This document shows positions 1 to 19,016 of a DNA stretch of 64,000 bases, piece by piece. Under the pieces are notes generated by a model. The model was not told where the DNA came from and searched no databases. It worked only from the letters and a program-made list of their open reading frames with translations. The first letter of the stretch is position 1. Each line of letters starts with the position of its first letter. Made by a program: the position numbers and the translations under genes. Source of the DNA: a virus; IMG/VR virus record IMGVR_UViG_2849231242_000001, one strand, 5' to 3'.

Positions 1-3000
1 GCACGCGGTCGATCGACTTGGCAAAGAAGAAATCATGCAGCATGAAGCCATGCTTTTCGTAATCTGGATCGGCGAAAATCTGCGTTTGCGAGAACGGCGG
101 ATTGCCGATCGCCACGTCAAAGTAGTCTTTCGGGAATTTGCGCTTGATGAAGTCGTCATGCAGCATGTTTTGCTCAGGCGACAACAAGCGGGCGATCAGG
201 GCGGTCGGGCCGTCGAACTCCACGCCGGTATAGCGCGAGGTGTTGCGCACGTTCTCGGGCATGAGCATCGAGAACGAGCCGATGCCCATACCGGGCTCGA
301 ACACCTTGCCGCCGGTAAAGCCCAGGCGCTGCATGCCCTCCCACGTCGAACGGATGATGCCTTCGCTGGTGTAGTGGGCATATTGCGAGGACTGGAGCAC
401 CGAACGTTGCCACGCGGCCGGCAGGGCCTCCATGCGGCTGGCCAGGCTGCGCCAGTTTGCTTCTTGAATCAGGCTTGGCCAGATCAGGCGCGTCGGCTCC
501 TGCTGTTTGGAAGAGGCCGGCGGAATTGGGAACAGCTTGTTGCGAATGGTCGAGGCACCAAAGCCGACGTATTTCGCCAGTTGCGCCTGCTCGGCCGGGG
601 TGGCCGGGCGGTTTTCGCCCTCGATCTTGAGGGCCAGTTCGATCAGGTCGACATTGCGCTTGGCCGTGTCGAACCAGGAGCCTTCACGGGTCAGTCCGCC
701 AGGGCTGGGGCGGAAGTCGGCAGGAACTCGCTGGTCACTTCGCTCCACAGCGTCAGGCGATCGGTCGGGAACTGCGTCATTCCCTCGCTCGTGCCCCACG
801 TCTTGTCGCGCATCATCTTGGCCTTGAGCTCGTCCTCCTGACTCTCGAACGCTTCGAGCATTGTCTCGTCCAGCGCGAGCGCGCGGCTTTCCAGCGCCTC
901 GGACGATAGCGTCGCCGCTTGCGGGTCGCTGTCCTTCAGCCACCGGCGAATCGATCGCAGGCGTACTGGCTGTAGGGGTGGAATCATGGTGTTGCTCCTT
1001 CGTTGCCGCTGGCGCGGGAATGGTTTCAGTATCGTTGATTGTTGCCGGCACGGCAAGTGCTGAACGGGAAAGTGCGGTAGCATGCACGGCCTTGGCGGCA
1101 TGATCGGCCAGATCGACGGCCGGCAGGTCCACCGGCATCCAGCGGTTTTGACCCATGGCACCATGTTTGTCGGCTTGGTTGCCGACACGCATCATCAGCG
1201 CAATGCCGGACGGGGTGCTTGGCACCATGCCACGGATTGCTGTATCGCCGATATGCAGGAAAATGCCGCGCTCTTTCTCTGGATGGAACATAACAAGGCG
1301 CACGTCACCGGAACCGGCCACGCCGGACTCGTTGATGCTCACGGCCTTGATCAGCTTGCCCTTGTCGTCCCGGTAAGGTACGAACCCTTGGGCCTGCAGG
1401 GCGCCGGAGACGGCGCGCAGATAGGCTTGCGCATCCTTCAGGAAGGCGTCTTTCAAGCCGCCACGCAGGCCGTAATCGGTTTGCTCATTCTTGCCGCCGG
1501 CGATTGCCGCCCAGCCATCGATATGGCTCACGCCCCAGTCAGCACGCAGGACCTTATCGGTCGCCTGCTTGGCCTTGGGCGCGACCTTGACCGTTTCGCC
1601 GATCGTGGCGTTCTGCACGTTCGTAGGCTGGGTATGCGGCGCGGTACCGGCCTGCTCCATGGCATCGATGTCGCTCGTGGAGCTCATGCCCGTGGTGTCG
1701 AGGCCTGGGTAATGGCGCACGCCCTCGTAGAAGCTGCGCAGGAAGGGGCGCACGGCCTCTCCCAGGTCTTCGACCATCGCCTTCGAGAATGCGGAGAACG
1801 AACGCACACCGGCCTCGACATAGGCGCCGGCGATGGTAATGCCGTCCATCATGAGCTCGGGATCGATGCCGGCATTGATATTGCCCAGTTTCGCCTTCAG
1901 GCGCGCGCGCGCCTTCTCGACCGCGTCGGCGGTAAACAGCTTGTTGCCGGCAAAAGGCGCGGCGGCGGCCGGCGCCTGGGCTTTGGCCTCGAACTGGGCG
2001 ACCAGGGCGGTGCGCACGTTCCCGCCCAGCTGGTCCCATGCGCTGTACTGGCCCTGATCGGCGTCCTTACCGATGCCCAGGCCAAGATTCAACAGGGCGT
2101 GGTGACGTTCAGCCGGCTGCATATCGGCCCAGTGCTTGGCGCCGTGCTCGTCGGCCACCTGCGCGGCTGACTTCTCGGTCACCACCGGCATGCTGGACTT
2201 GTTGACCTTGTCGCCTTTGTTGTTGATATACCACATTGGGGCGTCGAAATCGCCATCCAACGCCTCGCGCACCAGCGCGTGCTCGCGCGGCGTCATGTCG
2301 TCCCACGCTTTCGCGGCCAGATCTGCCCGATCGACGCGGGCCATGAGCATACGGCGCTTGGCGTCGCGCGCATCCGCCCATTCAGCTTGCGCTTCCTGCG
2401 CCGAATGGCGCTTCATATCGTCCGGCGTGGCGCGCGCGGCGCTGTCCTTCTTGGCTGGCGGTGCGTTCTCAGCTGGTTTGTTGGCCGCTGTCTTGGGCTT
2501 GGTCGGCGCTGGGTCTGGGTCAAGGTCCGGGTCAATGTTGCCGGTCGTCAAATCACGGATGGCCTCATTCGCCGCGGCGTCGTCCATATCCATGTAGTAG
2601 TGGTCTTCAACGGCTTGGTTGATTTCGGCTTCGGTCACGCCGGCGGCCACCGCCTGCTCGATCACGGTGCGGTCCAGGCGATCGTATTTGTTGGCGATCG
2701 CCATGACAGGTTGATCATGGGCGTTATTGGCCATGAAGAAGCCGTAGGAAAAGCCTTCCGGGGTGACACTGCGCGCATTTTTGGTAGCCATGCTCTTGCC
2801 GCCATACAGCTTGTGCATCTTGCTGCCCTCGGTCGGCTCGACTGGCGCGACAGGCAGATCGCCGTTAAATCGGCCCCACAGCAAGGTTTTCTTCGTGTAC
2901 GGGTCGCCCAGGTGGTTCGGGTCGAACGACAGGCGCCATGGTGGCAAGCCGCCCAGGCGCTCGATGCGCCCGACGGGGTTTTCAACCGCCCATACGGCCG

Positions 3001-6000
3001 GCTTGAAGTATTCGATGGTATTGAGGGTCTGGTGCACCAGCTTGACGCTGGCCACCGTGCGGCCGTCCGCATCTTTCGCTGCGAAATGGCGGGCGCCGCT
3101 GACGGCGAAGTCAGTACATGGCGTCGCCGCCAGGATGGCGTAAATGTCCATGCCGTCGAAGTCGCCGAACCAGTCGCCGAAAAAGCCGGTCGAGAAATTG
3201 TTCACGTCGCCGACATTGGGGTCGGCCTGAATGTCGAAGCGGTAGACCTGATAGCCGGCCTCTTCCCATGGCTTCGACCATTCGCCGGATAGATCGAACA
3301 GCGACAGCACCACGCGCTGCGCGTTGGCGCTGCGGATGGTCTGGTCCTGCCCTTGCGCCTGAGCGTGGGCCTTCCATTCCGCGATTATGACTTTAGCCTC
3401 GGCGGGCGTCATCCAGCCGTGCTCTTTGTGATACACCTTGGACTTTTCAGCCAGGCGGACCACTTCCCCCTTCTTGGGCGGCTGGAACACGTTGGAGACG
3501 GGATGGTCGCCCGCCATCATTTCCGCCTGGGCGGTATTGAATTCTGTGGCAATCTGGCCCAGCTCGCGCTCGTCGACGCCGACATCGATGTGCTCAGGCG
3601 CCGTCGCCTTGGTGTGCATGCCAGCTTCCGCCGTATTGTCTGGCTGGACGGAGGTGGTAGCGGCCTGCGCTACCGGCGCCGCCGCCGGCGGATGAATGCC
3701 GCGCTTGGCGATTTCTTTCTCAATTTTCGGGCCGCGCGGGCCATCGGCAAAGACGGTGCGCGCCTGCAGCAGCTGCGCATCGCTCATTTCCGTGACCAGC
3801 ATCTTGTTCAACGCCTGCTTGCTCAGCGCCGGCGCGGTGTCAGCCGCTGGGGCGGCGGCCGGCGCCGGTGCAAGTGCGGGCGCGAGCTTGGCAAATGGCT
3901 TCTTGGTCTTGCCGCTGGCCAGCCAGTTCTTGAATTCGGCGACTGTGGTTTCGCTGACATTGCGCCCGCCCGCCCAGTTCGGAGCGTAGTTGGCCTGGTA
4001 GGCAGCGCGCGCCTGCTCGATCGAATCAAAGCCCAGCATGACCTTGTGTTCGTCAAACTTGCCGCTCTCGGGCTGCACCTGGTCGACCATGAACACTTTA
4101 TCGCTGGCGTGGTTCGGGCCGATAAACGTATCGATGTGGTCCTTGTCGGCGCCGACAGTGCCGCGAATGTAGCCATAGTGGTGCTGCATCGTGTTTTCCC
4201 ACGGCTGGCCAGCCTTATCGACGCCGGAACGGGTCGAACTCACGGGATTTTCGATCGAAATGTCCAGGCCATGCAGGCGCACATGCGCCTTTTTATAGTT
4301 GCCGGCTTCTTTCTGGGCATCCGTCGGTGGTGCCACGTCATTGAGCGGCGAGGTAGCGGCGGCATGCGCTGCCACGTCGAGCGGCGCGGCGCTGGCTAGT
4401 ACGCTGCGCGCGCCATTCGACGCCATGGGCGATACAAGCCCCTCGGCCTCCATGCTTTCCAGCATGCGGGCCGCACGGTTGTACCCGACGCGCAGGTGTT
4501 GTTGCAGCTTCGCAATACTGGCATTGCCCGTGGTCCGTACAAATTCACGGGATTGCGCCAGCAAGATATCGCTTTCCTGCTGCTGTTGCTGCACGGGAGC
4601 TGATGACGCTAGAGGGGCGGCGGCCTCGGTGGCTTGTGTGGCAACCGGCATCTGGGCGGTGGCAGGAACCAGCGCCGGCGTGATGGCAGGTTGGGCTTGC
4701 GTCTGCTTGGCCATGGCGGCCACGTAGTGGGATTTTTGCGCGGTGCTGAGCTTGAAAATCTTGGTTGAGCCCGGCTTGTGCAGCACCGTGCCGTTCGCGG
4801 TCTTGAGGCGCATGCCGGCGGCGATGGCGGCATCAACCGCTTGCGTATTGGGCGCACTGGGCGCGGGTACGGCTGGCTTGCGTTCCGGAACTGCCTCGAT
4901 CAGCTCATTTGGCGCGCTGGGCAGGGGGGCGGCGGCCAGGTTGGCAGCATCAATTTCCTGGTGGTCAATCTCGTTGAGCACAGGCACACGGTATCCTTCG
5001 CGCTTGAGCGCGGCGGCAAAGGCGTCTTTCTTCCCTTCCGCAGGGATGGCCTCATCGGCCAGTACGGTATCGCGCAGCGCCGCCCGGTTGGACAGGGACC
5101 GGGCCTGGGTATCGCGCTCCACGCGCGTATTCACGTCTTCCAGTACCTGCTGCTGGCGAACCAGGTCGTCTTGCTGACGCTGGTCTTCATCGGCTTGCAG
5201 CATTGCTTCGATTTCGGCGCGCTCGGCTGCATCGCGCTTCTGCGCGGCGGCTTGTTCCGCTGCCAGGCGGTTGGCTTCGGCCGCCTTGATGGCTGGTTGA
5301 AATTTGGCATCGCGCGCGGCCTGTTCCTCGGCCAGCAGGGCATCAAATTCGGCCTGCTGGTCTGCCGGCAGGGTGGTGCGCGCAACGCGCGCCTGCTTGA
5401 GCGAATCGAATTCGCTGACTTCTTCCGGCGTCAGGCGACGGCCAGGTGTCGCCGGCACGGTAATCTTGCCGCCGTCGGCATCGACATCGCGCTGGGCTGG
5501 CGTGCCGCGCCCGATCGTCAGCAGTTCGGCCATGCGTGCGTCAATGTCGGCGAGGGAAGGCAAATCAGCTGCCGGACGTGGATTGGCGGCCGCCTGTGCG
5601 GCCTTGGCATCCGCTGCGGCTTGCGCAGCAGCATTGGCCGCGCGCGACAAGGGGCCGGTATCCGGCAACGGCACCGGCGCCGGCACTGGGGTGGCCTCTG
5701 GCGCGCGATGCAACATGCCCATGCCGGCGCCCATCGTCGCGCCCGTCACCAAGCCCATACCGGCTGCGTTGGCCACGCCCTTGCCGATATCTTTCTCGCC
5801 CTGCGCCACGTTGGTCCACGCCTGTTCTTGGGCGGACTGCGGCATTTCTTCCAGCACGCCCTCGCTGAACAGTTCCTTGCCGACTTTGGCCGCCTTGCCG
5901 CCTGTCAGCGTGCGCGTGCCCGTGGCGATATCGGTGGCGGCGTCGCCCATTACCTTGCCGGCACCAAAACCGATGGCAGCAGTGCCCAAGCCGGCAGCGA

Positions 6001-6657
6001 CGGCCGCCGGCGCGTACTGGCCATAGCTGCGCCCGGCAGCTTGCGCATCGTCGGCGATTTGGCCAGCGCTTTGCGCGCCCTCGGTGGCGCCACTGACGGC
6101 GAGCAGCTTGGTGCCCGCCTTCTCGATGGCGGCCTTGGCGGCGGTGGCGCCTGCCTCGGTCCCCATGCCGCCGTAGGCTGCGGCCGCCCGTGCACCAATC
6201 CCGCGCGCGACCGCGCTGGTGGCACCCATGCCGGCGATCATGCCTGGCAGCGATTCCACGATACTACCCGCCAGAGCGCGCGGATGCGTGAGCATGGCGC
6301 CGGCTGCACCCATGAAAGTATCTTCCTTCTGTACGGCTGCATCTGACGCCTTCTGGTCGTCGCTCAGGTACTCGCCCAGGTACTCGTTCGTCGCCTTGGG
6401 GTCATAGCCGATTGCCCGCATGCCCTTGCCTACCAGGCCGCCTGTGGCCAAGCTACCCAAGCCGACGACCGCCTGTCCCAGCCCTACGACGCCCTGGGCG
6501 CCCTTGATGGCCATATCGCCCGTCGTGCGCATCACGCCGGCGTGCTGTACTTCTTTTTCTGGTGCCTGGGGTGCGACGAAAGTATCGAAGGCGTCCCAGT
6601 TTGGCTCATCGTCGGCGCGGGTCAGGTAGGCCGGCTGTGTTTTTTTGGTTGTGGTCA
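1..6657 (-). CDS. Giant multidomain (polyvalent-type) phage protein, partial (C-terminus beyond window start); >2200 aa in window. Contains a Gly/Ala-rich N-terminal region, coiled coils, an FtsK-gamma-like winged helix, an inorganic-pyrophosphatase-like domain, a C5-cytosine MTase-like domain and an N6-adenine MTase domain. Apparent frame disruption between ~690 and ~1090.
   Basis: No minus-strand frame in 1188-6657 gives a plausible listed ORF, and the real frame has no stop, so it is absent from the ORF table. Manual translation from ATG at 6657 (MTTTKKTQPAYL...) reads as continuous protein. FtsK-gamma-like segment: ESDILLAQSREFVRTTGNASIAKLQQHLRVGYNRAARMLESMEAEGLVSP. Family-I PPase-like signature: ISIENP...HHYGYIRGT..GADKDHIDTFIG. 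C5-MTase PC motif ATPCTDFAVSGA and ENV-like motif AVWAVENPVG. N6-MTase motif I FEPGMGIGSF and motif IV GNPPFS at coordinates 1-400. Third-codon-position GC is high except 690-1090. Confidence 0.75.
691..987 (-). other. Frame-B segment inside the giant gene region (98 codons, MIPPLQPVRL...APALAD*) with strong coding signal and an AAGGAG Shine-Dalgarno. Either a small embedded gene, or a frameshifted (sequencing error, pseudogene or programmed) part of the giant protein.
   Basis: Third-position GC is coding-like in this frame over 700-950, whereas the giant frame (A) has AT-rich third positions here. cgAAGGAGcaacaccATG start context. Frame B stops at 691 (TGA). The MTase-domain coding frame resumes immediately in frame A with no start codon. 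Confidence 0.4.
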
Positions 6658-6704
6658 TTGAATTGTATTTGTTATGAAATGGGATGGGTCTGGCGGAGCC
6701 GGTC

Positions 6705-8594
6705 CTACATGCGCGCCGCGCGGCGGGCCTTGCGTACCTGCGCCAATTGCAGATTGGACAGCGTGCCGGCCTGGCTTTGCTCGTCAATCCACGTGAGCAC
6801 GGCTTGCGCTTCCGCGCGCGGCATGTTCGGCCTGATGGCCGCCAGCTTGGCGTCGAAGTTCGCGGCTACGTCCTCCTGCCGCGCGGCCATGCCGGCGGCA
6901 AAGCGCGAGCGATCGGCTCCGCCGCCGACGGTCTTGTTGAACAAATCCATGCGCTTGTCACGTTCCGCGATAGACATGCCGCCGACAGTAAAAGAAGGCT
7001 TGCGGGCGTCGGTAGGCGCTGGGCCAGCGGTGCCGGCCGCGTCCTCGAATGGATTGGTGACCGTATCACCGCGCCCTTGCGATGGCGCAGACGCTGGACC
7101 CAGCGCGGCCAGCTCACGTTTCAGGGCCGCAATATTGCTGGGGTCCTTCTCCGTTGCCAGTTCTTGCATCAGGATTTGGCGACGTCCATCCTCGCGCGCC
7201 GGCGCGCCGGCGCGGCTGGTGGCGGTGCGCTCTGCCCATTCGGCATCGCCAGCTGCCGCGCGATTCGGCGAGGGTGCCGCCAGTTTTTGCAGGGCATCAC
7301 TGCGCAACTGGCGCAACTTGACCGGGTCACCCTTGGCCTGGGCTTTCAGATTGGCGTCGGCTGTCAGGGCGTAGGCGCTGGCCGTAGCGGCATCGCCACC
7401 ATTCGAGCGCGAGCGCGCCACGGCGACCTGTTTGGCAAACTGCATCCCTTCGCCATCAAAGGTTTTGTTGCCTGACAGCTCATCCTTGCTGGAATACTGT
7501 TCCTTGAGGAAAGTATCGTCTTCTTTTCCCCAGATTGGCGCGGTCCCGGCGGTGGTCTTGGCATCGATGCCCAAGCCCTGCAGGCGGCGTTGTTCCCGCA
7601 TATTGTCGGCCTGGTCGAGACGATAATTCTCGTTCGTATCCGCATTTTGCTGCTGTATCTTGCGGCCGGCTGTGGCATCGGCGCGGCGGTCTGCCATGTC
7701 CGTGCCTTTTTGGGCCTGCGTAATGAGATCCTCGATCTTCTGGTTTTGTACCAGCGCCTGTGCGGTATTGAGGGTACGGGTACTGCCGTCATCGGCCTTG
7801 ACCGTCACGATTTTGGTCGGCAACTTGGTGCCGGCGTGCTCGAATACCCCATCAACGGACGAAGCTACGCTCCAGCCCTTCATATCGCCGTTCTCGTTAA
7901 ACCTGCGCATCGCGCCATCATTGTCGCCCTGCGCGAGCAGCTGAATGGCCTCGTTCAAGCCTTCCTTTGCGGCACTGCTGCGCATCTTGTACAGCACGGC
8001 CATGCCGGGGCCATCGATTTTCCCGTGCTGCATGTCGATTTCCGCACGCCGGATAAAGTAGTCCATCGAGGAAGCCATGTTGGTCAGCTTGTGCGCCGGC
8101 GCTGGCGTCGTCATACCTGCCGGTTGCGGCACCACGGCGGGCGCACCAGGGACCGGCGCCGCCTGTGGCATGCCTTGGGCCTGTGCGGCGCTCAAGGTCG
8201 ATGCCTGGACAGCTGGAGCGCTTGCAGGCGCGGGCGCGCTGGCAGCGGCATTCGCAGGCGCCGGCATCGCTTCGGCAGGAGTCTCCGCAGCGGGCATATC
8301 GGTCTGTGGCACCGCGCTGGGGGCCTGGATGCCCAGTGCGGGAGCGGGCGCGGGCTTTTTTGCTGGTGGGAAGTAATCGGTGTTCAGCGCTTCTACATCA
8401 GCCTTGTACTGGTCTTCCTTCTTCCAGTCGGCCCGCTGGCGGCCCCGCGTTTCCTCTTGAAATGCGGCCGCCTGTTCGCGCCGCGCATCTTCCTTGGTGC
8501 GGCGCTCTTCATCCGCTCGACGGCTCTTCATATCAGCAACAAAACCGTAGCCCTGCTGCATGCCTCCTACAAACCCACCCAGTACAGACGTCAT
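6705..8594 (-). CDS. Putative internal virion/ejection protein (~630 aa) with a glycine-zipper N-terminus and a Pro/Ala-rich linker
   Basis: ORF 6705..8681, with a probable start at MTSVLGGFVGGMQQGYGF (GAGG SD upstream). Lies between the 305-aa protein and the giant gene at the distal end of the structural operon, where P22-like phages keep gp7/gp20/gp16. Confidence 0.55.
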   Translation of the reverse strand: MTSVLGGFVGGMQQGYGFVADMKSRRADEERRTKEDARREQAAAFQEETRGRQRADWKKEDQYKADVEALNTDYFPPAKKPAPAPALGIQAPSAVPQTDMPAAETPAEAMPAPANAAASAPAPASAPAVQASTLSAAQAQGMPQAAPVPGAPAVVPQPAGMTTPAPAHKLTNMASSMDYFIRRAEIDMQHGKIDGPGMAVLYKMRSSAAKEGLNEAIQLLAQGDNDGAMRRFNENGDMKGWSVASSVDGVFEHAGTKLPTKIVTVKADDGSTRTLNTAQALVQNQKIEDLITQAQKGTDMADRRADATAGRKIQQQNADTNENYRLDQADNMREQRRLQGLGIDAKTTAGTAPIWGKEDDTFLKEQYSSKDELSGNKTFDGEGMQFAKQVAVARSRSNGGDAATASAYALTADANLKAQAKGDPVKLRQLRSDALQKLAAPSPNRAAAGDAEWAERTATSRAGAPAREDGRRQILMQELATEKDPSNIAALKRELAALGPASAPSQGRGDTVTNPFEDAAGTAGPAPTDARKPSFTVGGMSIAERDKRMDLFNKTVGGGADRSRFAAGMAARQEDVAANFDAKLAAIRPNMPRAEAQAVLTWIDEQSQAGTLSNLQLAQVRKARRAARM

Positions 8595-8635
8595 AACTTC
8601 CTCATTTCTCAGTTCATTCAAGCGGTAGCACCGTA

Positions 8636-9553
8636 TTATTTCGACATCATCCCCATGCCCATACCACCCAGCTGCCCCCACGCAGCGGCCTGCGCCGCGC
8701 CAGAGGCAGTGGCCGCGTCAGCCACTTTGGTATAGGTGTTGCTGGCACTGGTGAACTGGGAACCGGCATTGCTATACAAGCCACCTACCGTGCTGGCGCC
8801 GCTGAGGGCCGAATTGTTCGTGGTAGCCGTGGCGTTGACAGCAGCGGAACCCGCCGTGATGCCCAGTCCCGCGCTGGTCGCCTGCGAGCTGGCGAGGTTG
8901 CGGCCCAAGCTGGCGGCGTCCATGCGCTTCGCCTGGCCTACTGTTTTGACGTTCTGGCGCGCCGTGTTTTCAGCGCTGGCTTCACCCAGGGCGCCAGTGA
9001 TCGCCGATTCGCTTTGTGTCACCAGGGCGCGGCCGGAATTCGGATTGACACCCATGCGCGCTTGCGCGCGGGCGGTGGACTCATTCGCCTGGGCAACGTT
9101 CTGCTTGACCGATGCCGACGCGGCGCCGGCAGCGCGCTCTTGCTCTTCCGGTGAATCATATTTCTTGGCATCTTCAACAATGCTCTGTTCCAAGGGACGG
9201 AACGTGCTCTTGTTGTAGGCGTCGTAATCCTTTGCCAAGGCTGCATTTGTATCCATTGCTTCGAGCTGCTTGTTGGTGACTTTTTCAGTCAGCGCATCGG
9301 CCTTGGCAAAGCGAATCTTGTTGTCAGCATCCTGTTGCTTGGCAAACTCCAGCTCGGCATTAGCGACACGCTCCGAGGCATCGGCAGTCCTGTTGGCCGA
9401 CGCGGCGGCTTTGCTTGATGCTGATTTGGCCGCGCTGGCCGATGAAATGGCACCTACGGCACCTACCGCCCCAACCACACCGGCGATCACGCAGTAGAAG
9501 CGCGGGCGGTCCTGAAAAGCGGTGCGCTTGCACCGCACCAGATAGCGTTTCAT
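8636..9553 (-). CDS. Putative virion/ejection protein (305 aa), N-terminal TM helix followed by coiled coil
   Basis: ORF 8636..9553. Hydrophobic segment FYCVIAGVVGAVGAVGAI, then Ala/Gln-rich coiled-coil. Confidence 0.5.
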   Translation of the reverse strand: MKRYLVRCKRTAFQDRPRFYCVIAGVVGAVGAVGAISSASAAKSASSKAAASANRTADASERVANAELEFAKQQDADNKIRFAKADALTEKVTNKQLEAMDTNAALAKDYDAYNKSTFRPLEQSIVEDAKKYDSPEEQERAAGAASASVKQNVAQANESTARAQARMGVNPNSGRALVTQSESAITGALGEASAENTARQNVKTVGQAKRMDAASLGRNLASSQATSAGLGITAGSAAVNATATTNNSALSGASTVGGLYSNAGSQFTSASNTYTKVADAATASGAAQAAAWGQLGGMGMGMMSK

Positions 9554-10012
9554 TTAATCTCCGATGTATTTGGTGTAGACCGTTTCGGTTGCCGCAAAAC
9601 CCAGGAAACGCAGCACCGCGCCGATATCCAGATGCAGCTTCGTACCCGTGATCAGTTTTTTTACTCCACGCTGCCGCATTTGCGACTCGATAAAGCGGAA
9701 CATGCGAATACCCGTGAACCCCAGGCGATACTTCGGCAGGATGAAGTAGACATCTGTGATGGCGTGCAAGGTGCTCTCGTAATGCAGGTGGCCGCTGATA
9801 ATCGCAACGTGGTAGCCCACCATGACGCCATCCTTGCGCGCGGTGACGACGTGCAACAAATCGTTATCACACAGGTGCTGATAGCGCTCACGCGCGATAT
9901 CCAGCGGAACCTTGTCGTGCCCCAGCGCAATTTCTCGCCAGTGCTTGACCAGGATGGGTTCCATTTCCGGCAGCGCATCACGCCATTTTTCAACCTGGAA
10001 GTGAACTGTCAT
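9554..10012 (-). CDS. GNAT-family N-acyl/acetyltransferase (moron gene)
   Basis: 152 aa. GNAT motif A-like KYRLGFTGIRMFRFIE. Local GC is lower than the surrounding phage genes. Overlaps the upstream gene by ATGA (10009-10012). Confidence 0.55.
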   Translation of the reverse strand: MTVHFQVEKWRDALPEMEPILVKHWREIALGHDKVPLDIARERYQHLCDNDLLHVVTARKDGVMVGYHVAIISGHLHYESTLHAITDVYFILPKYRLGFTGIRMFRFIESQMRQRGVKKLITGTKLHLDIGAVLRFLGFAATETVYTKYIGD

Positions 10013-10578
10013 CGTGCCGTCCGGATATCAACAACCAGGTGAATGCGGTCAGTGCTGCCGTGATTGATGACGTCGTGCACTTGTTTGTTGTCGAACCACC
10101 AAATGTCGCCGGATGCCATGTTGACCGTCTCTTCACCTGCGCGGAAACGCGATTCGGGATTCGACTGCAGCACGATATGGAAGCGGCTGTAATATTCGGC
10201 ATGCGCTGGCGTATCGGCATGGGGTGTAATTTTTCCACCCGGCTTTACTTTGTTGATCATGCAGCGACCCAGGCGTTCGCCGCCGACACGCGACATCAGC
10301 CACATAATCAGGGGTCGGGCTTCGCTCAAGATTTTGTAGGCGGGATAGTCGATGCTTTCGTGCTGGTCGATCTGACTCAGATGCGCATCCAGTTCTGCTT
10401 GGGTTTCTCGCACGCTTTTCACAGGAAAACGCAGCATGATGGACTCGACATCACCAAAGGGTCCCTGCGGGTAGTTTCGAAGGTAAGTATCTTCGCGCCA
10501 CAGGTGCGGCTTCATTTTGATCGCCAACAGCAGCGGTGTAACGTCCATGTCGGACGCGATAAGTTGGAAATTATTCAT
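10009..10578 (-). CDS. Aspartyl/asparaginyl beta-hydroxylase-like (LpxO/AspH family) Fe(II)/2OG-dependent oxygenase (moron gene)
   Basis: 189 aa. HxD...H cupin-like segment PHADTPAHAEYYSRFHIVL...VHDVINHGSTDRIHLVVD. Lower GC. Own transcription unit located after the tail-fiber terminator. Confidence 0.5.
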   Translation of the reverse strand: MNNFQLIASDMDVTPLLLAIKMKPHLWREDTYLRNYPQGPFGDVESIMLRFPVKSVRETQAELDAHLSQIDQHESIDYPAYKILSEARPLIMWLMSRVGGERLGRCMINKVKPGGKITPHADTPAHAEYYSRFHIVLQSNPESRFRAGEETVNMASGDIWWFDNKQVHDVINHGSTDRIHLVVDIRTAR

Positions 10579-10664
10579 GCTTTATAGCTCCGGTTTATCA
10601 AGGCGCGCGAACGATATCACCGGGTATCCGAAAACTTAGATTTTTCCGGATGATCCGATCGGGC

Positions 10665-10693
10665 AAAAAAAAACCGCCCTGTAAGAGGCGGTT
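10665..10693 (-). terminator. Rho-independent terminator downstream of the tail fiber gene (minus strand)
   Basis: Minus-strand reading: AACCGCC-tcttacag-GGCGGTT followed by a T9 run (forward A-run 10665-10673; stems 10672-10678 and 10687-10693). Confidence 0.75.
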
Positions 10694-10713
10694 AAAGGTG
10701 ATTATGGAAATTA

Positions 10714-13374
10714 TCAAACCCTTACTAGTTTCCATTTGATGGTTTCTGGCAAGATTTGACCAGTCCCCGTTGTAGGTGTCCAAGTGAACTTGATATAAAT
10801 TCGATTATCAATGGGGTAGGCATTCAAATTCCCAAGGCCATCCCCTGACACGATTTCAGCTTGAGTAAAGCCATTTATGCCTCCGTTATTGGACTTCCCT
10901 GTAGCAATTGTGGCTGTTGCCATATAGGCGATCGATGGCGCGTCGTACCACCCATCTGGATAGCCTACATTTGTATCGATGTAAACGGTGAACGGAATAT
11001 GCTCTCCCCCCATGTATCCCACCCAGCCTACATTTACCCCAGTGACTCCGCGCGAGATCACATTTGGTTCAGAAATTAACTCTCGGGAGAATTGACCAGA
11101 CCCGTTAGCGCGCAGAACAATGGCCCCGTTGCCGACCGAAAGAAACGGTTCGGCGCCGCTGGCGTTCAAGTTCATGTAACTGGTATTGGCCGTGTTCCTG
11201 AGCAGACCGGCCGTGATAACGCCAAGAGTACCGCTCGACGCGACGAGGTTTCCTGAAAATTCCCCGCTTGCCCCCATCAGCTTCCCCGAAAACTGCCCGC
11301 TGCCAGTGATGGTTAGGCTGGAGCCATCCCATTGCATGTAGTTGCCCATAGGATTGCCCACGCGAAATTTATAGACACCGTCCACCTGCCCCATCCAGAG
11401 CCCGGCGCCGACCGTAAACGACGAGACGCCTTGGGTACGCAAGTATCCGCCGGCATTGATCTCAATCTGCCCCAGGCTGGCGGCCAATGCCGATAAAGTG
11501 CTGAACTTGCCGATCAATGCCGTTACGATATTCGCTTGCATCCGCGTGGCAGCGATATCTCCAGCGGTGATCTTGCCCGCATTGAGGCTGGCGATCTTTG
11601 CATCATCGATGGCCGCATTACCAATTTTAGCGTTGGTAATGGTGCCATTTGCGATGAATCCATCGGCGATGTACACGCCGGCAGGGACGTTAACACCATT
11701 GATCACGCTGGCCGTAGTGCGCACGATAAATGGAGTTGATGGCGCGATTCCATTGCCGCTTGGCCCCGCAACAAAGAAGGTGCTTGCGCGCACCCCGAAA
11801 TCGATTGTAGAGGTGAGGCCGTCGCCACTGCCGATAATGCCAAAGCCGCCGGCAATGCCGTCCACATCAATATTGACCGTGTACTTCGCCTGGACTTTGC
11901 CCAGCGCCGTGACGGAAGCATCGGCCAGCACTTTCACTGCGGCATACTTGGCGACCAACCCAGTGCTGGGGTCGCTGACGATAGCCTGTAACTGCTTGAG
12001 TTCCGTGGCGGTGGCGCTGTCAGCTGTAGCGCGCACGGTTTGCTCGCTGACAATGGCGGCCTTGAGGCCAGCTGCAGTTTCCGCTACCAGCGACTCGATA
12101 CGCTGAGAGACGGCAGTGTCGGCCGTCACTTGCGCGGAATAGGCCACCTGGGAAGCGGCCAGGCTGGTCGCGGTTGCCGCGCTGAGGTACTGGGCCAATT
12201 CCGTCAGGGCGGTGTCCGCGTCTGCGCGGACCTTCTCTTCGCGGGTGATACTGGCAACGTTATCGTTTACCGTGGCTGTCAGACTGTCAATGCGCGTGCC
12301 CAGCGACGTATCGGCGGTAGTGCGTAAGTTTCGTTCCTCGAACAATAATCCGCTGGACAGGCTGGCGACGGCACCGACGGTCGCCGGGTCCGCCACGCCC
12401 AGCACCTTTGACGACAACACCTGTCGGGCGGCCACTTCTGCGCTATCGGCCTTGGTGCGCGCCGTCTCTTCCTTTTGAATAGCGGCGGTAATGTTGTCGG
12501 CCGTTTGCGCTGCCAGCGATTCGATACGGCTCGATAACGCTGAATCGCCCGTGGCAATGACGGTAACGACCTGTTTATAAGCAGCAAGGTTGGTATCACT
12601 CGCTGCTACCAAATACTGGATTTCCTGCGCCAGCGCGTTGTCCGCTTCCTGGCGCAAGGTGCTTTCCTGGCCGATCGCCGTGCCCCGGTCCTTGGCTTCG
12701 GCCAAAAAGGCAGCAATGCGCAAATTTGCTTCCGCTGCAATTGCCTTGTCGCGCGCCGTCGTCTCAGCCAGGATGCGTTGTGCGACACTGCCGGCGGTGC
12801 TTGCCGGCGCAGTGATCAACTCAATCTTATTTCCTAGGTCCGCATACAGCTGCGATTGGGTCACTTGGCCGGTCAACAATGACAGCAAGTAAGCGGGGTC
12901 TGCGCCAGTTTCGCCACGCGTGCCCAGCTGGGCGTTGAAGGGGCCGACAACATTGGCCTGCGACACATAACGAATCCAGTAAAAGCGCACCGCCGCACCG
13001 CCGACGTTGTCGACGTAAATGCGGCCATCGGAGCGCCCTACCATCTGGGCAAGACTGAAATCGTTGGACTGTGCGCGCCAGATTTCAGTATGCGACAGCT
13101 TGTCAAAGTTGGTCGCATCCCATGCCAGGATGATCGTTGCCAGCGCGCCGGACATGTTCAAGCCCGTCGGCTTGGGCGGCGTCGCGCCGAGGTCCGTGCC
13201 GCTGCCCTTCTCTCCGGGCAGTGGTAGGCCCAGGGCGCGCAGGTCCTTCAGTTTCGCTACTTGATGATCGCCAGCAGTAAATGCGTTGAGAATTTCACGC
13301 ATCGGGCGCAAGAGTGCGCTCACCTCGGTTGGAATTTTGGAGGAAATTGCTGGGATGCTGGGCAAATTAGCCAA
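10714..13374 (-). CDS. Tail fiber / host-specificity protein (886 aa)
   Basis: Repetitive coiled-coil modules (AAIQKEETARTKADSAEVAARQ / ASITREEKVRADADTALTELAQ / AAIVSEQTVRATADSATATELKQ). C-terminal beta-rich Gly/Asn/Thr region typical of fiber receptor-binding domains. Followed by a terminator. Confidence 0.75.
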   Translation of the reverse strand: MANLPSIPAISSKIPTEVSALLRPMREILNAFTAGDHQVAKLKDLRALGLPLPGEKGSGTDLGATPPKPTGLNMSGALATIILAWDATNFDKLSHTEIWRAQSNDFSLAQMVGRSDGRIYVDNVGGAAVRFYWIRYVSQANVVGPFNAQLGTRGETGADPAYLLSLLTGQVTQSQLYADLGNKIELITAPASTAGSVAQRILAETTARDKAIAAEANLRIAAFLAEAKDRGTAIGQESTLRQEADNALAQEIQYLVAASDTNLAAYKQVVTVIATGDSALSSRIESLAAQTADNITAAIQKEETARTKADSAEVAARQVLSSKVLGVADPATVGAVASLSSGLLFEERNLRTTADTSLGTRIDSLTATVNDNVASITREEKVRADADTALTELAQYLSAATATSLAASQVAYSAQVTADTAVSQRIESLVAETAAGLKAAIVSEQTVRATADSATATELKQLQAIVSDPSTGLVAKYAAVKVLADASVTALGKVQAKYTVNIDVDGIAGGFGIIGSGDGLTSTIDFGVRASTFFVAGPSGNGIAPSTPFIVRTTASVINGVNVPAGVYIADGFIANGTITNAKIGNAAIDDAKIASLNAGKITAGDIAATRMQANIVTALIGKFSTLSALAASLGQIEINAGGYLRTQGVSSFTVGAGLWMGQVDGVYKFRVGNPMGNYMQWDGSSLTITGSGQFSGKLMGASGEFSGNLVASSGTLGVITAGLLRNTANTSYMNLNASGAEPFLSVGNGAIVLRANGSGQFSRELISEPNVISRGVTGVNVGWVGYMGGEHIPFTVYIDTNVGYPDGWYDAPSIAYMATATIATGKSNNGGINGFTQAEIVSGDGLGNLNAYPIDNRIYIKFTWTPTTGTGQILPETIKWKLVRV

Positions 13375-14962
13375 TTTTCAGCTCCTTGGGACGGTCAGCG
13401 ACTGCGAGAAGGCGAATCCGCTGGGTGCCGATCAGTTCGAGCTCGATCTGGCGCGGACGGTAATCGCCTGGCAGGCGGAATACCTGCTCATCGAGCACTT
13501 GCCGGGAATGGATCATCTCCCCATCGGCATACAGGTTGAAGGTGACGGGATATGTGTCGGCATCGACGCGCGCGCAACCTGGGCCAGGGCTTGCCGCGAA
13601 CTGGAATTTCTTCGACCGCCAGGTGTACGTCAGGTTGGCGCCGGCATTGAATTTCTTGATTTCCCCGCCGATCACCAGGTACAAGGCATCGTTGACCGCA
13701 TCGACATGGCCCGCAGTGACGGTTTCATCGAACATGGTCAGACTGGCATCCTCCAGCGAATTGAGGATGAAGCCGCCGCCGGCATACAAAGCGACATACT
13801 TGCCATCATGGAAATACCCCTCGATGGTTTCAGGGACCAGTGCCTGCCATTCCTCGCGGGTGTACAGCGCCTGCGTGACAACACGCGAGCCACCGACACC
13901 GACATTGACCAGGCCATCGGGCGAGGCATACATCACGCCGCCGCCGATCGACACGATCGAGCGCTTGGAGACGCACGCCTGGTCGAGCTCGATGCGCTCC
14001 ATCGACATGCTGTCCGGATGCACGCCTGTCACCAGATAAGGGGAACCCTTGGTGCACACCAGGATGCTCGACCCGAAGACGCCCAGCCCGACGATCGGAT
14101 AATCGGCCGTCAGGCGGTACTTTTCGGGCCATGCATAGGGCAAGTTCGGTTCGCAAAAGTACAGATCGTGGCCCGAAAATCCCGCCATGATGCCGTTGGG
14201 CAAACCCACCAAACCCGTCAGCGTCGCCGGCGGCAGGGCATACGACAGGGTCGATAGCGGCTCGCCCAGCTCCGTGGGCAATAGCTTGTCCTCGAAAGTG
14301 GTGCTGGCATCGGCAATTTCCGTCACGAATTCGTAGACGGCCGATCCGCTGGCCGTTTGCTGGCTGCGATAGATACGCTTGGCAGCGATGTTGTAGTTGC
14401 CCGTCGGCGCTGTCGCCAGCAGGCCGAGTTTGACGGAGCCACCTTCCGTGACCGTTACCTTGGTGGGGGGGGAAGGCGCGCCCTCTTCCCCCCAGGCCGA
14501 GACGTAGGTATAGATGTAGACGCGGGTTTCCGCCGGCGCGGTCGAGGTACTGGCGACACAGGTTGGCGCCTGCAAGGGCGCCGGCACACCAAGGGCATAG
14601 GCATTGACGGGGTAGCTTGTGCCTCCCTGCGTTGCCATTTGCAAATTGGTCACTTTCGGCACGCCGTCGCCAGTATAGTAGGTGCGCTCGGTGGTGTCGC
14701 CCGCCACTATCCCGCGCGCCACGTCCACGTCGGTGGTCCACGTCAGCCAGTACTGGGTTTCTGGCAGGGACATGCCCATGCGGTAGATACTCTTGATCGC
14801 CTGCGCCAGCGGCACGGGTGTGACTACCGTTCTGGCGCTTTTCAACGAGCGCAAGTCGCCATGCCAGAGTGTGCAGTTGCGCGCGACCTGGGCGGCCGCG
14901 TTGGGAAGCATGGCGGCGTTCTGGCGCGGCATCATGCCGCCAAAATTGGAAATGGAAATCAT
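13367..14962 (-). CDS. Phage tail/structural protein (531 aa)
   Basis: Long ORF with coding GC3, located between the lysis cassette and the tail fiber. Overlaps the fiber start by 8 nt. Confidence 0.5.
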   Translation of the reverse strand: MISISNFGGMMPRQNAAMLPNAAAQVARNCTLWHGDLRSLKSARTVVTPVPLAQAIKSIYRMGMSLPETQYWLTWTTDVDVARGIVAGDTTERTYYTGDGVPKVTNLQMATQGGTSYPVNAYALGVPAPLQAPTCVASTSTAPAETRVYIYTYVSAWGEEGAPSPPTKVTVTEGGSVKLGLLATAPTGNYNIAAKRIYRSQQTASGSAVYEFVTEIADASTTFEDKLLPTELGEPLSTLSYALPPATLTGLVGLPNGIMAGFSGHDLYFCEPNLPYAWPEKYRLTADYPIVGLGVFGSSILVCTKGSPYLVTGVHPDSMSMERIELDQACVSKRSIVSIGGGVMYASPDGLVNVGVGGSRVVTQALYTREEWQALVPETIEGYFHDGKYVALYAGGGFILNSLEDASLTMFDETVTAGHVDAVNDALYLVIGGEIKKFNAGANLTYTWRSKKFQFAASPGPGCARVDADTYPVTFNLYADGEMIHSRQVLDEQVFRLPGDYRPRQIELELIGTQRIRLLAVADRPKELKIG

Positions 14963-15022
14963 GTGGTCCTGAAATAAAGAGAGCCCGCATATAGCGGGCT
15001 CTCGGGGTGGTGCTGGCAGTGA

Positions 15023-15511
15023 CTACGGGTTGACCGTGCGCCTCACGGCGTCGTACTTGGCAATGCAGGCGTTGAGATCCCGCACCGCGTCGTCTCCGTC
15101 AGCGGCGATGTCGATAAGCTCGATAGCAGCCTCTGGCATAAGTTCGGAGCGCGTTTCGATATACCCAGTGCCGGGATCTGGGCTGGCGGCGCCTGCACGA
15201 AGCGCACGGGTGGCGATTGACAGGCTGACAGCGCCGCTGCGCACGTCAGCGCGCAGAGTATCGATGGTAGTTTTTGCATCATGAATCTCTTGTAGGTGTA
15301 CCGCGTCAACGGCCTGGTGCTGCGCGGTCAGCTGCGCTGTGTCCTGCTTCGCCTTGGAGGTGGCCAGGTGTAGCTGCTCCCGTGCCAGGCCATCGGCTGC
15401 GTTCAGGCGCTCGGCGCAACTGCGCTGCGCCTCCCACTCCCCGACAAAGAAGGCCAGCGTGACCAGCAGCAGGCCTGCCAGCCATGGGCGCACATCGATC
15501 GCGCTCATCAT
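15023..15511 (-). CDS. Rz: Rz-like i-spanin (inner-membrane spanin subunit)
   Basis: Start ATGATGA overlaps the endolysin stop. N-terminal TM (WLAGLLLVTLAFFVG), then Gln/Ala-rich coiled coil. Contains the embedded +1-frame lipoprotein ORF. Confidence 0.7.
   Translation of the reverse strand: MMSAIDVRPWLAGLLLVTLAFFVGEWEAQRSCAERLNAADGLAREQLHLATSKAKQDTAQLTAQHQAVDAVHLQEIHDAKTTIDTLRADVRSGAVSLSIATRALRAGAASPDPGTGYIETRSELMPEAAIELIDIAADGDDAVRDLNACIAKYDAVRRTVNP
15043..15279 (-). CDS. Rz1: Rz1-like o-spanin (outer-membrane lipoprotein) embedded in Rz
   Basis: MQKLPSILCALTCAAALSAC lipobox (LSAC) followed by a Pro-rich mature peptide. Entirely inside Rz in another frame. Confidence 0.65.
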   Translation of the reverse strand: MQKLPSILCALTCAAALSACQSPPVRFVQAPPAQIPALGISKRAPNLCQRLLSSLSTSPLTETTRCGISTPALPSTTP

Positions 15512-16026
15512 GCAAGCACCCGCTGCGCCACTTCGAACAGACCAAGGCGCGCCGCCAGGCCGTTCGAGCCGCCGTTGATGCGCTGCGAAACTTTCACCTG
15601 GTTGCCCGTGTCCGCCAGCGCATTTAAGCCGCGCATCTGCCAGAACCAGCCGGCCGAACGGCAGGCAAGCACGACTTGCTCCAGCAGCTCGGGCTTGGCC
15701 AGCAGATCCAGACCAAGCGCCTTGCCGCATGCTGTGTAGTTGGCGCGGCCCGTCACTTGCAGCAGGCCGCGCCCCTTGAAGCGCACGCCGTCACCTGGTT
15801 GTGTATTGCCCAGGTCTGCGCGCCCTTCATAGGCCTGGCCGCTGGCCAGCTCCCGCACATAGAGCAGCTGCCCCGATTCATGACCCACTTGGGCCAGAAA
15901 TGAGGCTTGCCGCGCCGGGGTGTTGATGCCGAATTCCAGCATTGCTGCGTTCAGCGGTTGAAGGAAGACGGACGCGCGGGAGCGCGCATACGGCATGATT
16001 TGAACCAATTGTGCGAGCGTCATCAT
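15508..16026 (-). CDS. Endolysin, glycoside hydrolase family 19 (chitinase-like lysozyme)
   Basis: AQVGHESGQLLYVRE...RFKGRGLLQVTGRANY motifs typical of GH19 phage endolysins. Start taken at MMTLAQ (16026); the upstream part of ORF 15508..16167 looks non-coding. Confidence 0.75.
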   Translation of the reverse strand: MMTLAQLVQIMPYARSRASVFLQPLNAAMLEFGINTPARQASFLAQVGHESGQLLYVRELASGQAYEGRADLGNTQPGDGVRFKGRGLLQVTGRANYTACGKALGLDLLAKPELLEQVVLACRSAGWFWQMRGLNALADTGNQVKVSQRINGGSNGLAARLGLFEVAQRVLA

Positions 16027-16156
16027 AAGAAATTCACCAAAGCGAGAATGCCAATGAAGGAAAGCGTGGCCGTGCCGACGGTGCGCGTTTGCAGCCGGGG
16101 GTTGAGCACACAGAAAAGACAGCCGAGCAGCACGGCAAACGACAGCACTTTGATCG

Positions 16157-16504
16157 TCATTTATCACTCCCCAGGTAACGGCGCTTCAATGCGCCGATCA
16201 GGTCGGCCGAATTGATTTCCGTGAACACCTCGCGGCAGGTGGCCAGTGCGAAGAGCCCTACCAGGAACTCCACGCCGGAATGCACGCGGTCGCCGCCGAT
16301 GCTGAAGAAGTCGATCAGCGCCGGCGCGATGTAGATGGCGCAGGCAAAACCGATGAGGAAGGAGACAAATTTCTGTGATGCGCTCAAGCTGTCTCCTAGA
16401 AACTTGAGCGACACGGCGGCGCCGGCGGCGCCTGGAAGGGACGCCAGGGCGATTTTGAGCAGCGTGGCGGTAAGCGCGGCGAAGGTTGAGACTGGTTCTG
16501 CCAT
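16157..16504 (-). CDS. Putative holin (3 predicted TM helices, basic C-terminus)
   Basis: Start at MAEPVSTFAALTATLL. Hydrophobic helices. C-terminal KRRYLGSDK. Immediately upstream of the endolysin. Confidence 0.5.
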   Translation of the reverse strand: MAEPVSTFAALTATLLKIALASLPGAAGAAVSLKFLGDSLSASQKFVSFLIGFACAIYIAPALIDFFSIGGDRVHSGVEFLVGLFALATCREVFTEINSADLIGALKRRYLGSDK

Positions 16505-16690
16505 GAAGGCTCCTAAAATGGAAAACCCGCCGTAGCGGGTTCTTGTGAGGCTGTCCACGGCGTGATGGGCCGTGTTATGTGGCGCGACGGTCGGTGACGA
16601 CCATGCGGCGCGGTATGCACCGCAGACGCGGACCCTTGCCGCGCGCGCTACCCACCTGGCAAGCTCTCAGCCATGTATTTGGCCAGCTGC

Positions 16691-17005
16691 TCATCCTTTG
16701 GCGCGCTCCCATCCGACACGGATTACGCCGACGTTGTTATAAATGACCCATACATACAGGGCAATGAGGCCTGCAAGCGCCCAGTGGGGAATGCCTTGCT
16801 CCAGCACTGCCAGGTACAGAGCAACGAGCATGGCCGCCTTCGGCAGCAGCAGACCCGGCGCCAGGCCAAACTGGCGAATCAACCAGGCCATGAGCGGGTT
16901 TGCCTCCCGCCCGATCTGACGGGAAATGATGTAGTAGGTAGTGGCGACGTCCGCCAGCTGCAGCACGAACAGCGCGGTGAAGAGAAATGCCTGAATGTGG
17001 CTCAT
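16691..17005 (-). CDS. Small integral membrane protein (possible second holin/antiholin)
   Basis: 104 aa, 3-4 hydrophobic helices, adjacent to the lysis cassette. Confidence 0.4.
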   Translation of the reverse strand: MSHIQAFLFTALFVLQLADVATTYYIISRQIGREANPLMAWLIRQFGLAPGLLLPKAAMLVALYLAVLEQGIPHWALAGLIALYVWVIYNNVGVIRVGWERAKG

Positions 17006-17125
17006 GCTGGCACCTCATACGCCATCGATAGCAGGCTGGGACCGGCCGCCAGTGCGGCAAAGCCCAGAGCGCGGCGCGCTAGGGCGTGTTTAACTTTTCT
17101 AGGTAAATTCATGAAGATCCTTTCA

Positions 17126-17719: not shown

Positions 17720-17722
17720 GGG

Positions 17723-18517: not shown

Positions 18518-18573
18518 TACGCTCTCCGGTGAATGGGTGGCCCGACTATGGGTATCGAGGTGTGGTGCTGGCC

Positions 18574-18939
18574 TTATGCCGCGCCGTGCACGTTGAAGTT
18601 AAAGCGGCGCAAGGAACGCTTCTTCATTTCGCCATTGGGCAGCGATTCGTGGATGTCCTGTACGCAGTTTTCGAGGGCGTGCAGGACTTCGACCGGAATG
18701 CTGGAGCGCACGTCGCGCGGAATCTGATAACCGACGCCATTGACGCTGACGAAAACGGCTTCGCGGCCCATCTCGCCTTCCTGCTCGTAAATGGTGATGC
18801 TCACTTTGTCGCCGCTCAGCGCGTCATCGTGCGCACTGCCTGTCACTGCCGTCGAGACTGCCTCTGCCTGGTCGAAGCCGCCCAGATCATCGAGTGTCGA
18901 TACTTGGGAGGTGCTGCTTTTTTTGGTGTTCGCGTTCAT
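18574..18939 (-). CDS. Hypothetical protein (121 aa) downstream of coat gene
   Basis: Start at MNANTKK (ATG 18937-18939). Preceded by a hairpin terminator/attenuator. Confidence 0.4.
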   Translation of the reverse strand: MNANTKKSSTSQVSTLDDLGGFDQAEAVSTAVTGSAHDDALSGDKVSITIYEQEGEMGREAVFVSVNGVGYQIPRDVRSSIPVEVLHALENCVQDIHESLPNGEMKKRSLRRFNFNVHGAA

Positions 18940-18968
18940 GCGTCTACTCCATAAATTCGGATGAAATG

Positions 18969-18993: not shown

Positions 18994-19016
18994 TTTCAAG
19001 GGGCGTACTGACGCCG

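Follow-up and report, generated by a model that had tools for sequence, protein, structure and literature searches.

The window analysed here is the whole stretch of 64,000 nucleotides (nt) presented for the IMG/VR virus record IMGVR_UViG_2849231242_000001, and the subject of this report is a giant minus-strand gene that occupies both of its ends. An open reading frame (ORF) of 2,219 codons runs from ATG 6658 to window base 2 without a stop and is cut off there by the left window end. The stop-free minus-strand frame spans 6865 to 2, with 69 codons of open frame preceding ATG 6658, which is the first plausible start; the gene called independently on a public contig of identical sequence begins there too. 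The C-terminal 1,030 codons of the same gene lie at the right window end (63998 to 60909, minus strand), followed by a stop codon at 60906-60908. An earlier note, made from the letters alone, had described an ORF of more than 2200 codons with no stop in the window; the length stands, with 2,219 codons to the left end, but the stop codon lies inside the window at its right end.

2-6658, minus strand: first 2,219 codons of the giant gene (N-terminal part); continuous frame, identical to the contig product.
60906-63998, minus strand: C-terminal 1,030 codons and stop of the giant gene; open right-end frame, 100% identical to the rebuilt C-terminus.

The public contig, Logan SRR12364938_96 (70,765 nt), was found via the exact sequences of two neighbouring window proteins and carries one called product of 5,495 amino acids (aa). 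The full gene, rebuilt from two overlapping contig loci, is 16,488 nt long and encodes 5,495 aa (594.6 kDa), the sole stop being the terminal one. The first 2,219 and last 1,030 residues of the rebuilt protein are 100% identical to the two window pieces. The left piece makes up the first 40% of the protein, and the 6,735 nt absent from the window all lie inside the giant gene. Window positions 1-18594 and 52428-64000 equal the contig base for base in every stretch compared. The window reads straight across both ends of the contig, which overlap by 30 nt with the junction at window 52428-52457 (by coordinate arithmetic). It follows that the element forms a ~70,735-bp circle or is the circularly permuted counterpart of one. 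The giant gene, 23.3% of the element, is cut at both window ends, since these fall inside it and the window is the element in circularly permuted form. In megablast the left and right parts of the window matched one and the same Massilia gene, the right part at its 5' end.

It is very improbable that the region represents several independent genes or an assembly chimera of unrelated ones. The extreme length and the mosaic domain content could be taken in that sense, as could phage F116, in which the homologous region is two genes, 59 and 60 (products p59 and p60), where here it is one. Against it stand 5,495 codons without a stop, the agreement of the window with the independent Logan contig base for base over all compared stretches, and colinear single-ORF orthologs on a finished plasmid of Massilia violaceinigra (5,555 aa), in Pseudomonas phage 8P (5,145 aa, annotated 'structural protein'), in Bcep22 (4,602 aa) and in a Burkholderiaceae metagenome-assembled genome (a colinear 4,376-aa open frame, 65% identical, from a genome-contig scan). 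The assumption of one gene rather than several thus holds. A literature search found no paper on phage 8P.

The domain order of the protein is a conserved N-terminal region, an FtsK-gamma winged helix-turn-helix (wHTH), an InPase domain, a C5-cytosine-methyltransferase (MTase)-like module, a conserved spacer with an LPD36-like motif, an N6-adenine MTase, an SNF2/ResIII helicase, LPD37, two HExxH motifs and a PLxRFG region. The features that fall in the window are given below, and all motif strings quoted in the earlier note were located at exact positions apart from 'ENV'.

5489-6571, minus strand: Gly/Ala-rich conserved N-terminal region, ~aa 30-390 (phrog_30335, E=2e-64).
4394-4576, minus strand: FtsK-gamma winged helix, aa 695-755 (Pfam PF09397, E=8.1e-19).
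3920-4321, minus strand: InPase, family-I pyrophosphatase-like domain of oligonucleotide/oligosaccharide-binding (OB) fold, aa 780-913 (Pfam PF18823, E=5.4e-57).
2534-3574, minus strand: C5-cytosine-MTase-like module, aa ~1029-1375, the counterpart of an entire stand-alone plasmid/phage gene.
2-2572, minus strand: start of the DarB-like block, aa 1363-2219 (phrog_10089 'DarB-like antirestriction', E=3.5e-197).
551-565, minus strand: LPD36-like GxGU motif, read as G-F-G-A at the expected place.
272-301, minus strand: N6-adenine MTase motif I, FEPGMGIGSF, aa 2120-2129.
92-103, minus strand: N6-adenine MTase NPPF, aa 2186-2189.
60954-62942, minus strand: PLxRFG / 'tail-700' domain, full-length aa 4818-5480 (NCBIfam NF032893, E=1.2e-186).
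62916-62933, minus strand: PLSRFG motif within the PLxRFG domain.
61701-61757, minus strand: one strongly hydrophobic segment within the PLxRFG domain.

The N-terminal 690 aa match 69 of 120 homologs, mostly across ~aa 30-180, and the N-terminal region is colinear with the N-terminus of the Massilia ortholog. It is possible that the Gly/Ala-rich part serves as a virion-incorporation module. No NCBIfam family was found in the N-terminal 2,219 aa, and no Rfam match across the whole window.

The FtsK-gamma winged helix, already recognized from its motif, scores 67.5 bits against PF09397 (cutoff 30.6) over profile positions 2-62 of 63; the recognition motif LRVGYNRAARMLESMEAEGLVSP lies at aa 722-744 (nt 4427-4495). 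Loading directed by FtsK orienting polar sequences (KOPS) was considered and rejected: GGGNAGGG, the canonical E. coli-type KOPS and the only form of the motif counted, occurs at 13 sites (8.7 +/- 3.0 expected) and is not enriched, and with 5 plus-strand and 8 minus-strand sites it has no polarity.

The InPase domain matches PF18823 at 191.8 bits (cutoff 26.8) over profile positions 1-134 of 135, with IENP at aa 802-805, HHYGYIRGT at aa 826-834 and GADKDHIDTFIG at aa 836-847. Its AlphaFold model has a predicted local distance difference test score (pLDDT) of 95.5, and in a Foldseek search of the Protein Data Bank (PDB) the top 50 of 50 matches were family-I pyrophosphatases (PPases), with probability 1.00, E from 2e-4 and template modelling (TM) scores of ~0.42-0.45, which for this model indicate a distant relationship. 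In 52 aligned segments E803, R810, Y828, G829, D843, D869 and K872 are invariant, and D838, D859 and an E-H pair before K872 are nearly so; the conservation expected of metal-binding Asp residues is therefore found at D843 and D869, and nearly at D838. The acidic residues of the D.D..D motif (D838, D840, D843) are all present, their mapping to PPase residues being by sequence alignment only. Soluble family-I PPases (E. coli Ppa, M. tuberculosis Rv3628) belong to the same fold class and share IE.P, YGYI and D.D..D with the InPase domain at ~14-18% identity; here, however, it is a domain of a giant protein and not a free oligomeric enzyme. The InPase profile reaches the classical PPases weakly, via the YGYI...D.D..D stretch, and it matches the C-terminal domain of a solved phage portal (PDB 9b41, gp19) with E=3e-46.

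The earlier note took a PPase-like domain in such a protein to be undescribed, which is not the case. PF18823 'InPase' is exactly such a domain, and Iyer, Burroughs, Anand, de Souza and Aravind (2017, J Bacteriol; PMC5512222), who defined 'polyvalent proteins', give a section of their paper to the type-I InPase domains, without a beta-hairpin, of virion-packaged phage polyvalent proteins. In the alignment the stretch from the IE.P strand to YGYI is 9 residues shorter than in the M. tuberculosis PPase, in agreement with the absence of a beta-hairpin by which the polyvalent InPase clade is defined (PMC5512222). The profile matches 12,279 cluster representatives at E<=0.001 and 11,572 at E<=1e-10, and among the top 150 the majority are 1,000-6,000 aa long. 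The literature search found no experimental paper on the domain beyond the 2017 prediction, and none later on its function.

The C5-like module corresponds to the entire length of a stand-alone family of 290-460 aa named 'DNA cytosine methyltransferase' by NCBI (792 matches), with 56-75% identity in the alignment and 87% in the best BLASTP match. At the nucleotide level it is ~78% identical to genes on conjugative Pseudomonas plasmids. The stand-alone genes on Pseudomonas, Cupriavidus and Pandoraea plasmids (e.g. WP_015272388.1, pPC9) are alike over essentially the whole protein (56-87% aa identity); unlike them, the equivalent of the whole gene sits here in-frame inside a giant protein. Such embedding at 56-87% identity points to a recent exchange of modules between plasmids and virion proteins. 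The literature search turned up no experimental work on the stand-alone family.

Motif IV of the module reads TPCTDFAVSGA (aa 1179-1189), with TPC at aa 1179-1181 and a catalytic-type Cys1181, and motif VI reads AVENPVG, with ENP at aa 1226-1228; P-C and E-N-P are invariant in 51 homologs. Of the C5-MTase core proposed beforehand, the PC motif, the degenerate motif I and the C5 fold are retained, and the 'ENV' motif is corrected to E-N-P-V. In the part where a target-recognition domain and motifs VIII-X would be sought, only about 40 residues separate YTKKTLLWG from RSVTPEGF, the motif assignments being by eye. In a fold search the module ranked C5 MTases above all other Rossmann folds and agreed with the C5-MTase catalytic-domain fold; a C5-carboxymethyltransferase was among the top fold matches. 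A phmmer search of PDB sequences with the module and its family profile returned chance matches only and no C5 MTase, and hhalign gave no significant match of the family to the window's own canonical C5 MTase (probability 0.9%). The module is best described as having a predicted C5-MTase fold and a putative activity. The canonical enzyme is a separate gene of Dcm type at 57475-59496 (plus strand), 673 aa as called, with PF00145 at E=2e-16.

The InPase, instead of scavenging pyrophosphate as a housekeeping enzyme, might be a virion-delivered counter-defence hydrolase that acts on a phosphoanhydride-containing immune signal or on the nucleotide pool in the first moments of infection, with a related reading in which the C5-like module installs a non-methyl group; the two together are a doubtful proposal. 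A nucleotide-signal target for InPase was already put forward as a hypothesis by Iyer et al. (PMC5512222), and the novelty would lie in the demonstration and not in the concept. If anti-defence activity of the InPase were demonstrated, it would represent a very widespread phage strategy, given the ~11,600 protein clusters.

The DarB-like block starts in the window and continues past it, with phrog_10089 covering the 1,410 residues that follow (E=0) and matching again at the C-terminal end (E=1.4e-31). Three colinear BLASTP high-scoring segment pairs (HSPs) connect the protein with P1 DarB (E=2e-19, 2e-21 and 6e-11). The first aligns aa 2095-2299 with P1 DarB 91-293 (E=2e-19), and the other two cover the helicase outside the window. 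Both the N6-adenine MTase, with its FEPGMGIGSF and NPPF motifs in the region colinear with P1 DarB, and the DarB-like character of the protein had been anticipated from the letters and are borne out. Pfam Eco57I reaches only E=0.05 in the window, whose edge cuts the N6 MTase domain; the Massilia ortholog is above the Pfam cutoffs for Eco57I and N6_Mtase. The LPD36-like motif lies in the spacer before the MTase, and an LPD36 domain with a GxGU motif is described as preceding the adenine-MTase/SNF2 dyad (Iyer et al. 2017, PMC5512222). The helicase outside the window carries GSGKT (Walker A) at aa 2819 and DEAH at aa 2980; the Pfam matches to ResIII and SNF2 are weak and below cutoff, and the Logan annotation lists PF28555 Helicase_dom. 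LPD37 follows at full-length aa 3669-3877 (Pfam E=6.1e-60), also outside the window.

Two HExxH motifs, HETLH and HEMLH, lie outside the window at full-length aa 4126 and 4350, with the Massilia equivalents HETLH and HEMMH. They may belong to a metallopeptidase for self-processing, of the kind reported in polyvalent proteins by Iyer et al. (PMC5512222).

The C-terminal ~990 aa of the protein (60909-63998) are ~50% identical to F116 p60 and H66 gp60. These two proteins were classed by Hardies et al. (2016, PMC4819975) as homologs of the T7 internal virion protein IVP-D (gp16) fused to intracellularly acting domains, the link to T7 gp16 being a comparison of hidden Markov models (HMM-HMM, E=8e-19), and were compared there with N4 gp50, which is likewise related to the giant C-terminus by analogy. 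No PHROG internal-virion family matched the C-terminal region at E<=1. Since the C-terminus is homologous to F116 p60 and H66 gp60, classed as IVP-D homologs, the giant protein is best read as a predicted ejection protein with enzymatic cargo, not as an accessory gene behind the ejection proteins. The placement after the ejection proteins that had been proposed is thus right as to the module end, and is to be amended in that the C-terminus is itself homologous to an ejection-protein homolog.

The gene is the last of a minus-strand virion module that begins with TerS, as the earlier note had it in calling it the last gene of a structural/ejection operon. Upstream of it lies a complete late module of podovirus type (assignments from PHROGs unless stated otherwise):

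25485-26108, minus strand: small terminase TerS.
23966-25522, minus strand: large terminase TerL.
21554-23932, minus strand: portal.
19017-20045, minus strand: major capsid protein.
15023-16167, minus strand: lysis genes, endolysin and spanin.
13367-14962, minus strand: internal virion protein, 531 aa (phrog_511, E=8e-163).
10714-13374, minus strand: tail fibre.
10009-10578, minus strand: Asp/Asn beta-hydroxylase-like gene, directly after the tail fibre (PF05118 in the public contig annotation).
9554-10012, minus strand: small acetyltransferase.
8636-9553, minus strand: virion structural protein, 305 aa.
6705-8594, minus strand: 629-aa protein (called product; a 658-aa ORF from GTG 8681).

The module is syntenic with that of Bcep22, in which gp67 (internal virion protein) matches the 531-aa protein and gp70 the 305-aa protein. 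No NCBIfam family was found in the 658-aa ORF from GTG 8681.

Taken together, the giant protein is considered, with a probability of roughly 85%, to be a DarB-like phage polyvalent protein at the virion module end of a Bcep22/F116-like podovirus with plasmid partition genes, acting by the general mechanism outlined below; confidence is lower for each single activity. The single ORF, the domain identities, the homology to DarB, gp75, p60 and reportedly virion-associated proteins, the synteny and the circular element were computed here, and packaging, ejection and every enzymatic activity are what we infer. The protein would be expressed late and, in the role of an internal virion or ejection protein, become part of the capsid core. 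It would exit the virion with the DNA, delivery into the host together with the DNA being suggested by homology to JC1 gp69 and P1 DarB, and the enzymatic cargo would act at the very start of infection. The DarB-like dyad of methylase and translocase would protect the entering DNA in cis from type I restriction by modifying or shielding it, and the C5-like module could add or mimic a second protective modification. The FtsK-gamma wHTH would tether the protein to double-stranded DNA, and the InPase would hydrolyse pyrophosphate or a nucleotide-derived phosphoanhydride or signal.

It is improbable that the protein is not packaged and instead works in the cytoplasm as a late-expressed complex of modification enzymes, methylating progeny or prophage DNA ahead of packaging in the way of ordinary orphan methylases of phages. 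The separate canonical C5 MTase gene at 57475-59496 makes cytoplasmic self-methylation a part of the element's biology and to that extent favours such a role. The position of the giant gene at the virion operon end, the homology of its C-terminus to F116 p60 and H66 gp60 (classed as structural or IVP-D), the 45% identity of its core to Bcep22 gp75, the detection of the JC1 homolog gp69 in virions and the nature of P1 DarB as a head protein all argue for the packaged polyvalent protein.

Several points weigh against the reading as a packaged, enzymatically armed ejection protein. Packaging is argued from homology and gene position, and the IVP-D homology of the giant C-terminus from the published HMM-HMM result for F116 and H66. 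The circularity could equally be explained by circularly permuted, terminally redundant virion DNA. The HExxH regions are matched by no Pfam peptidase model. The C5-like module falls below the PF00145 cutoff (18.7 vs 22 bits), the module of the Massilia ortholog being just above it at 23.5 bits. Its motif I is FDLSGEW and not FxGxG, a family-wide pattern F-D-x-x-G-x-W in which F, D, G and W are invariant, and TKKT stands, by eye, where QxRxR is expected. Judged by these motifs, the module may not be an ordinary 5-methylcytosine (m5C) methylase.

A further explanation, unlikely but deserving of attention, is that some of the enzymatic modules, the C5-like one especially, are catalytically dead and that the ejection protein is mainly structural, with these modules as its DNA-binding, decoy or spacer domains. 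It would account for the degenerate motif I, the ENP of motif VI, the apparent replacement of the motif VIII arginines by lysines, the Pfam score below cutoff and the failure of the family profile to find a C5 MTase among PDB sequences. It has to contend with the invariance of the unusual residues, P-C and E-N-P included, in the 51 homologs, which argues for selection on an active site, with the ranking of the fold among C5 MTases above other Rossmann folds, and with the widespread stand-alone versions on plasmids (792 matches), in which a pure spacer role would make no sense. The invariant non-canonical cofactor loop gives this family some practical interest, as do the module exchange with plasmids and the very common InPase domain.

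The element also carries a ParA-type ATPase gene (43100-44185, plus strand), a ParB gene (44182-45282, plus strand) and a gene for a helix-turn-helix (HTH) protein at 45493-46503 (plus strand) that may be a replication initiator. The par region lies in a low-GC stretch at 40-46 kb (50-54% GC vs ~60% elsewhere), and a repeat scan for iterons at 39300-46600 gave short two-copy matches only. The parA and parB genes together with the HTH gene suggest a plasmid-prophage lifestyle, like that of the related Massilia violaceinigra 'plasmid'. Window positions 1-20000 had no megablast match among phages, an exact 50-mer from the window start had none in a collection of viral contigs, and the closest DNA matches of the element lie in the plasmid collection. 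These matches and the par genes are what could be cited for a polyvalent protein of the conjugative-element type, delivered by type IV secretion and not a phage protein at all. That origin is extremely improbable: no relaxase or type IV secretion system gene was seen among the ORFs examined in the window, which covers the whole element outside the giant gene, and the element has a full set of phage virion and lysis genes. The matching Massilia violaceinigra 'plasmid' (87 kb) is itself non-mobilizable and carries phage structural genes.

Other genes of the element were noted in passing. The acetyltransferase at 9554-10012, part of the ejection-protein cluster, corresponds in position to Bcep22 gp69 and to the IVP-A of T7-like podoviruses, which Hardies et al. 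place in an acetyltransferase family. A gene of the same kind as the beta-hydroxylase-like gene is found in the same neighbourhood on the Massilia plasmid, and its product may modify a tail or host-recognition protein. In window 10001-12000 the GC content falls to 53% across the distal part of the tail-fibre gene, as is usual for receptor-binding modules exchanged horizontally. A UmuC-like Y-family DNA polymerase (27656-29002, plus strand; IMS, IMS_C, DUF4113) is encoded between the terminase genes and an integrase-family gene (34297-35364, minus strand). The early/accessory region holds genes for a SprT-like metalloprotease (53042-53773, plus strand) and an H-NS-like protein (~55600-55914, plus strand); an H-NS family gene adjoins the giant gene on the Massilia plasmid.

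Among known systems, P1 DarB (YP_006479.1, 2,255 aa) is colinear with and homologous to the N6-adenine MTase and superfamily 2 (SF2) helicase part. It acts against restriction, is packaged in the head and has a capsid-targeting signal at its N-terminus (PMC9024508). The giant protein is 2.4 times as long, with ~2,000 aa of extra N-terminal and ~2,000 aa of extra C-terminal modules, and P1 is a myovirus whereas this element is a podovirus. Bcep22 gp75 (Lessievirus 'DarB-like antirestriction') occupies the same place at the virion module end; its 45% identity to the giant protein extends over 1,752 aa, and the C-terminal end is common to both at the HMM level. The N-terminal cargo differs, as BLASTP found no InPase, FtsK-gamma or C5-like counterpart in gp75. 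JC1 gp69, most similar to Bcep22 gp75 according to the JC1 authors, was found by mass spectrometry in CsCl-purified virions with 51 unique peptides as the second-best-scoring protein (PMC9144972).

The colinear Massilia violaceinigra ortholog, WP_099883082.1 ('PLxRFG domain-containing protein', RefSeq, 5,555 aa), is 52% identical overall, 64-75% from InPase to N6 MTase and 79% at the C-terminus (its aa 4566-5553). Its order of InPase, C5-like module, N6 MTase, helicase, LPD37 and PLxRFG is the same as here; it lacks FtsK-gamma and has an extra ART-PolyVal ADP-ribosyltransferase domain. The combination of FtsK-gamma, InPase, C5-like and N6 modules was seen only in the present protein among the homologs retrieved, and each pair occurs elsewhere: a RefSeq Massilia antarctica protein has FtsK_gamma, InPase and DarB-type families, and another retrieved homolog has PF00145 and InPase. 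In a family defined by domain shuffling the four-domain combination is not surprising.

Polyvalent proteins (PMC5512222) unite many unrelated effector domains, 2 to 15 by definition, in one polypeptide encoded with late/packaging genes of phages or with conjugation genes. The giant protein likewise carries FtsK_gamma, InPase, C5-like, N6 MTase, SNF2/ResIII, LPD37 and PLxRFG in one ORF, lies with the late/packaging genes and includes a polyvalent-specific LPD domain (LPD37). Features described for the class are present in the InPase, the FtsK wHTH (listed among the rarer DNA-binding domains), the adenine-MTase/SNF2 dyad with its LPD36-like GxGU, and LPD37; cytosine, Dcm or 5mC methylases did not turn up in a text search of Iyer et al. 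2017 (PMC5512222). The protein illustrates how anti-defence enzymes may ride as an exchangeable cassette on an essential ejection protein, and it belongs, PPase-like domain included, to the class described in 2017, of which it is a clean and complete example and not a new principle.

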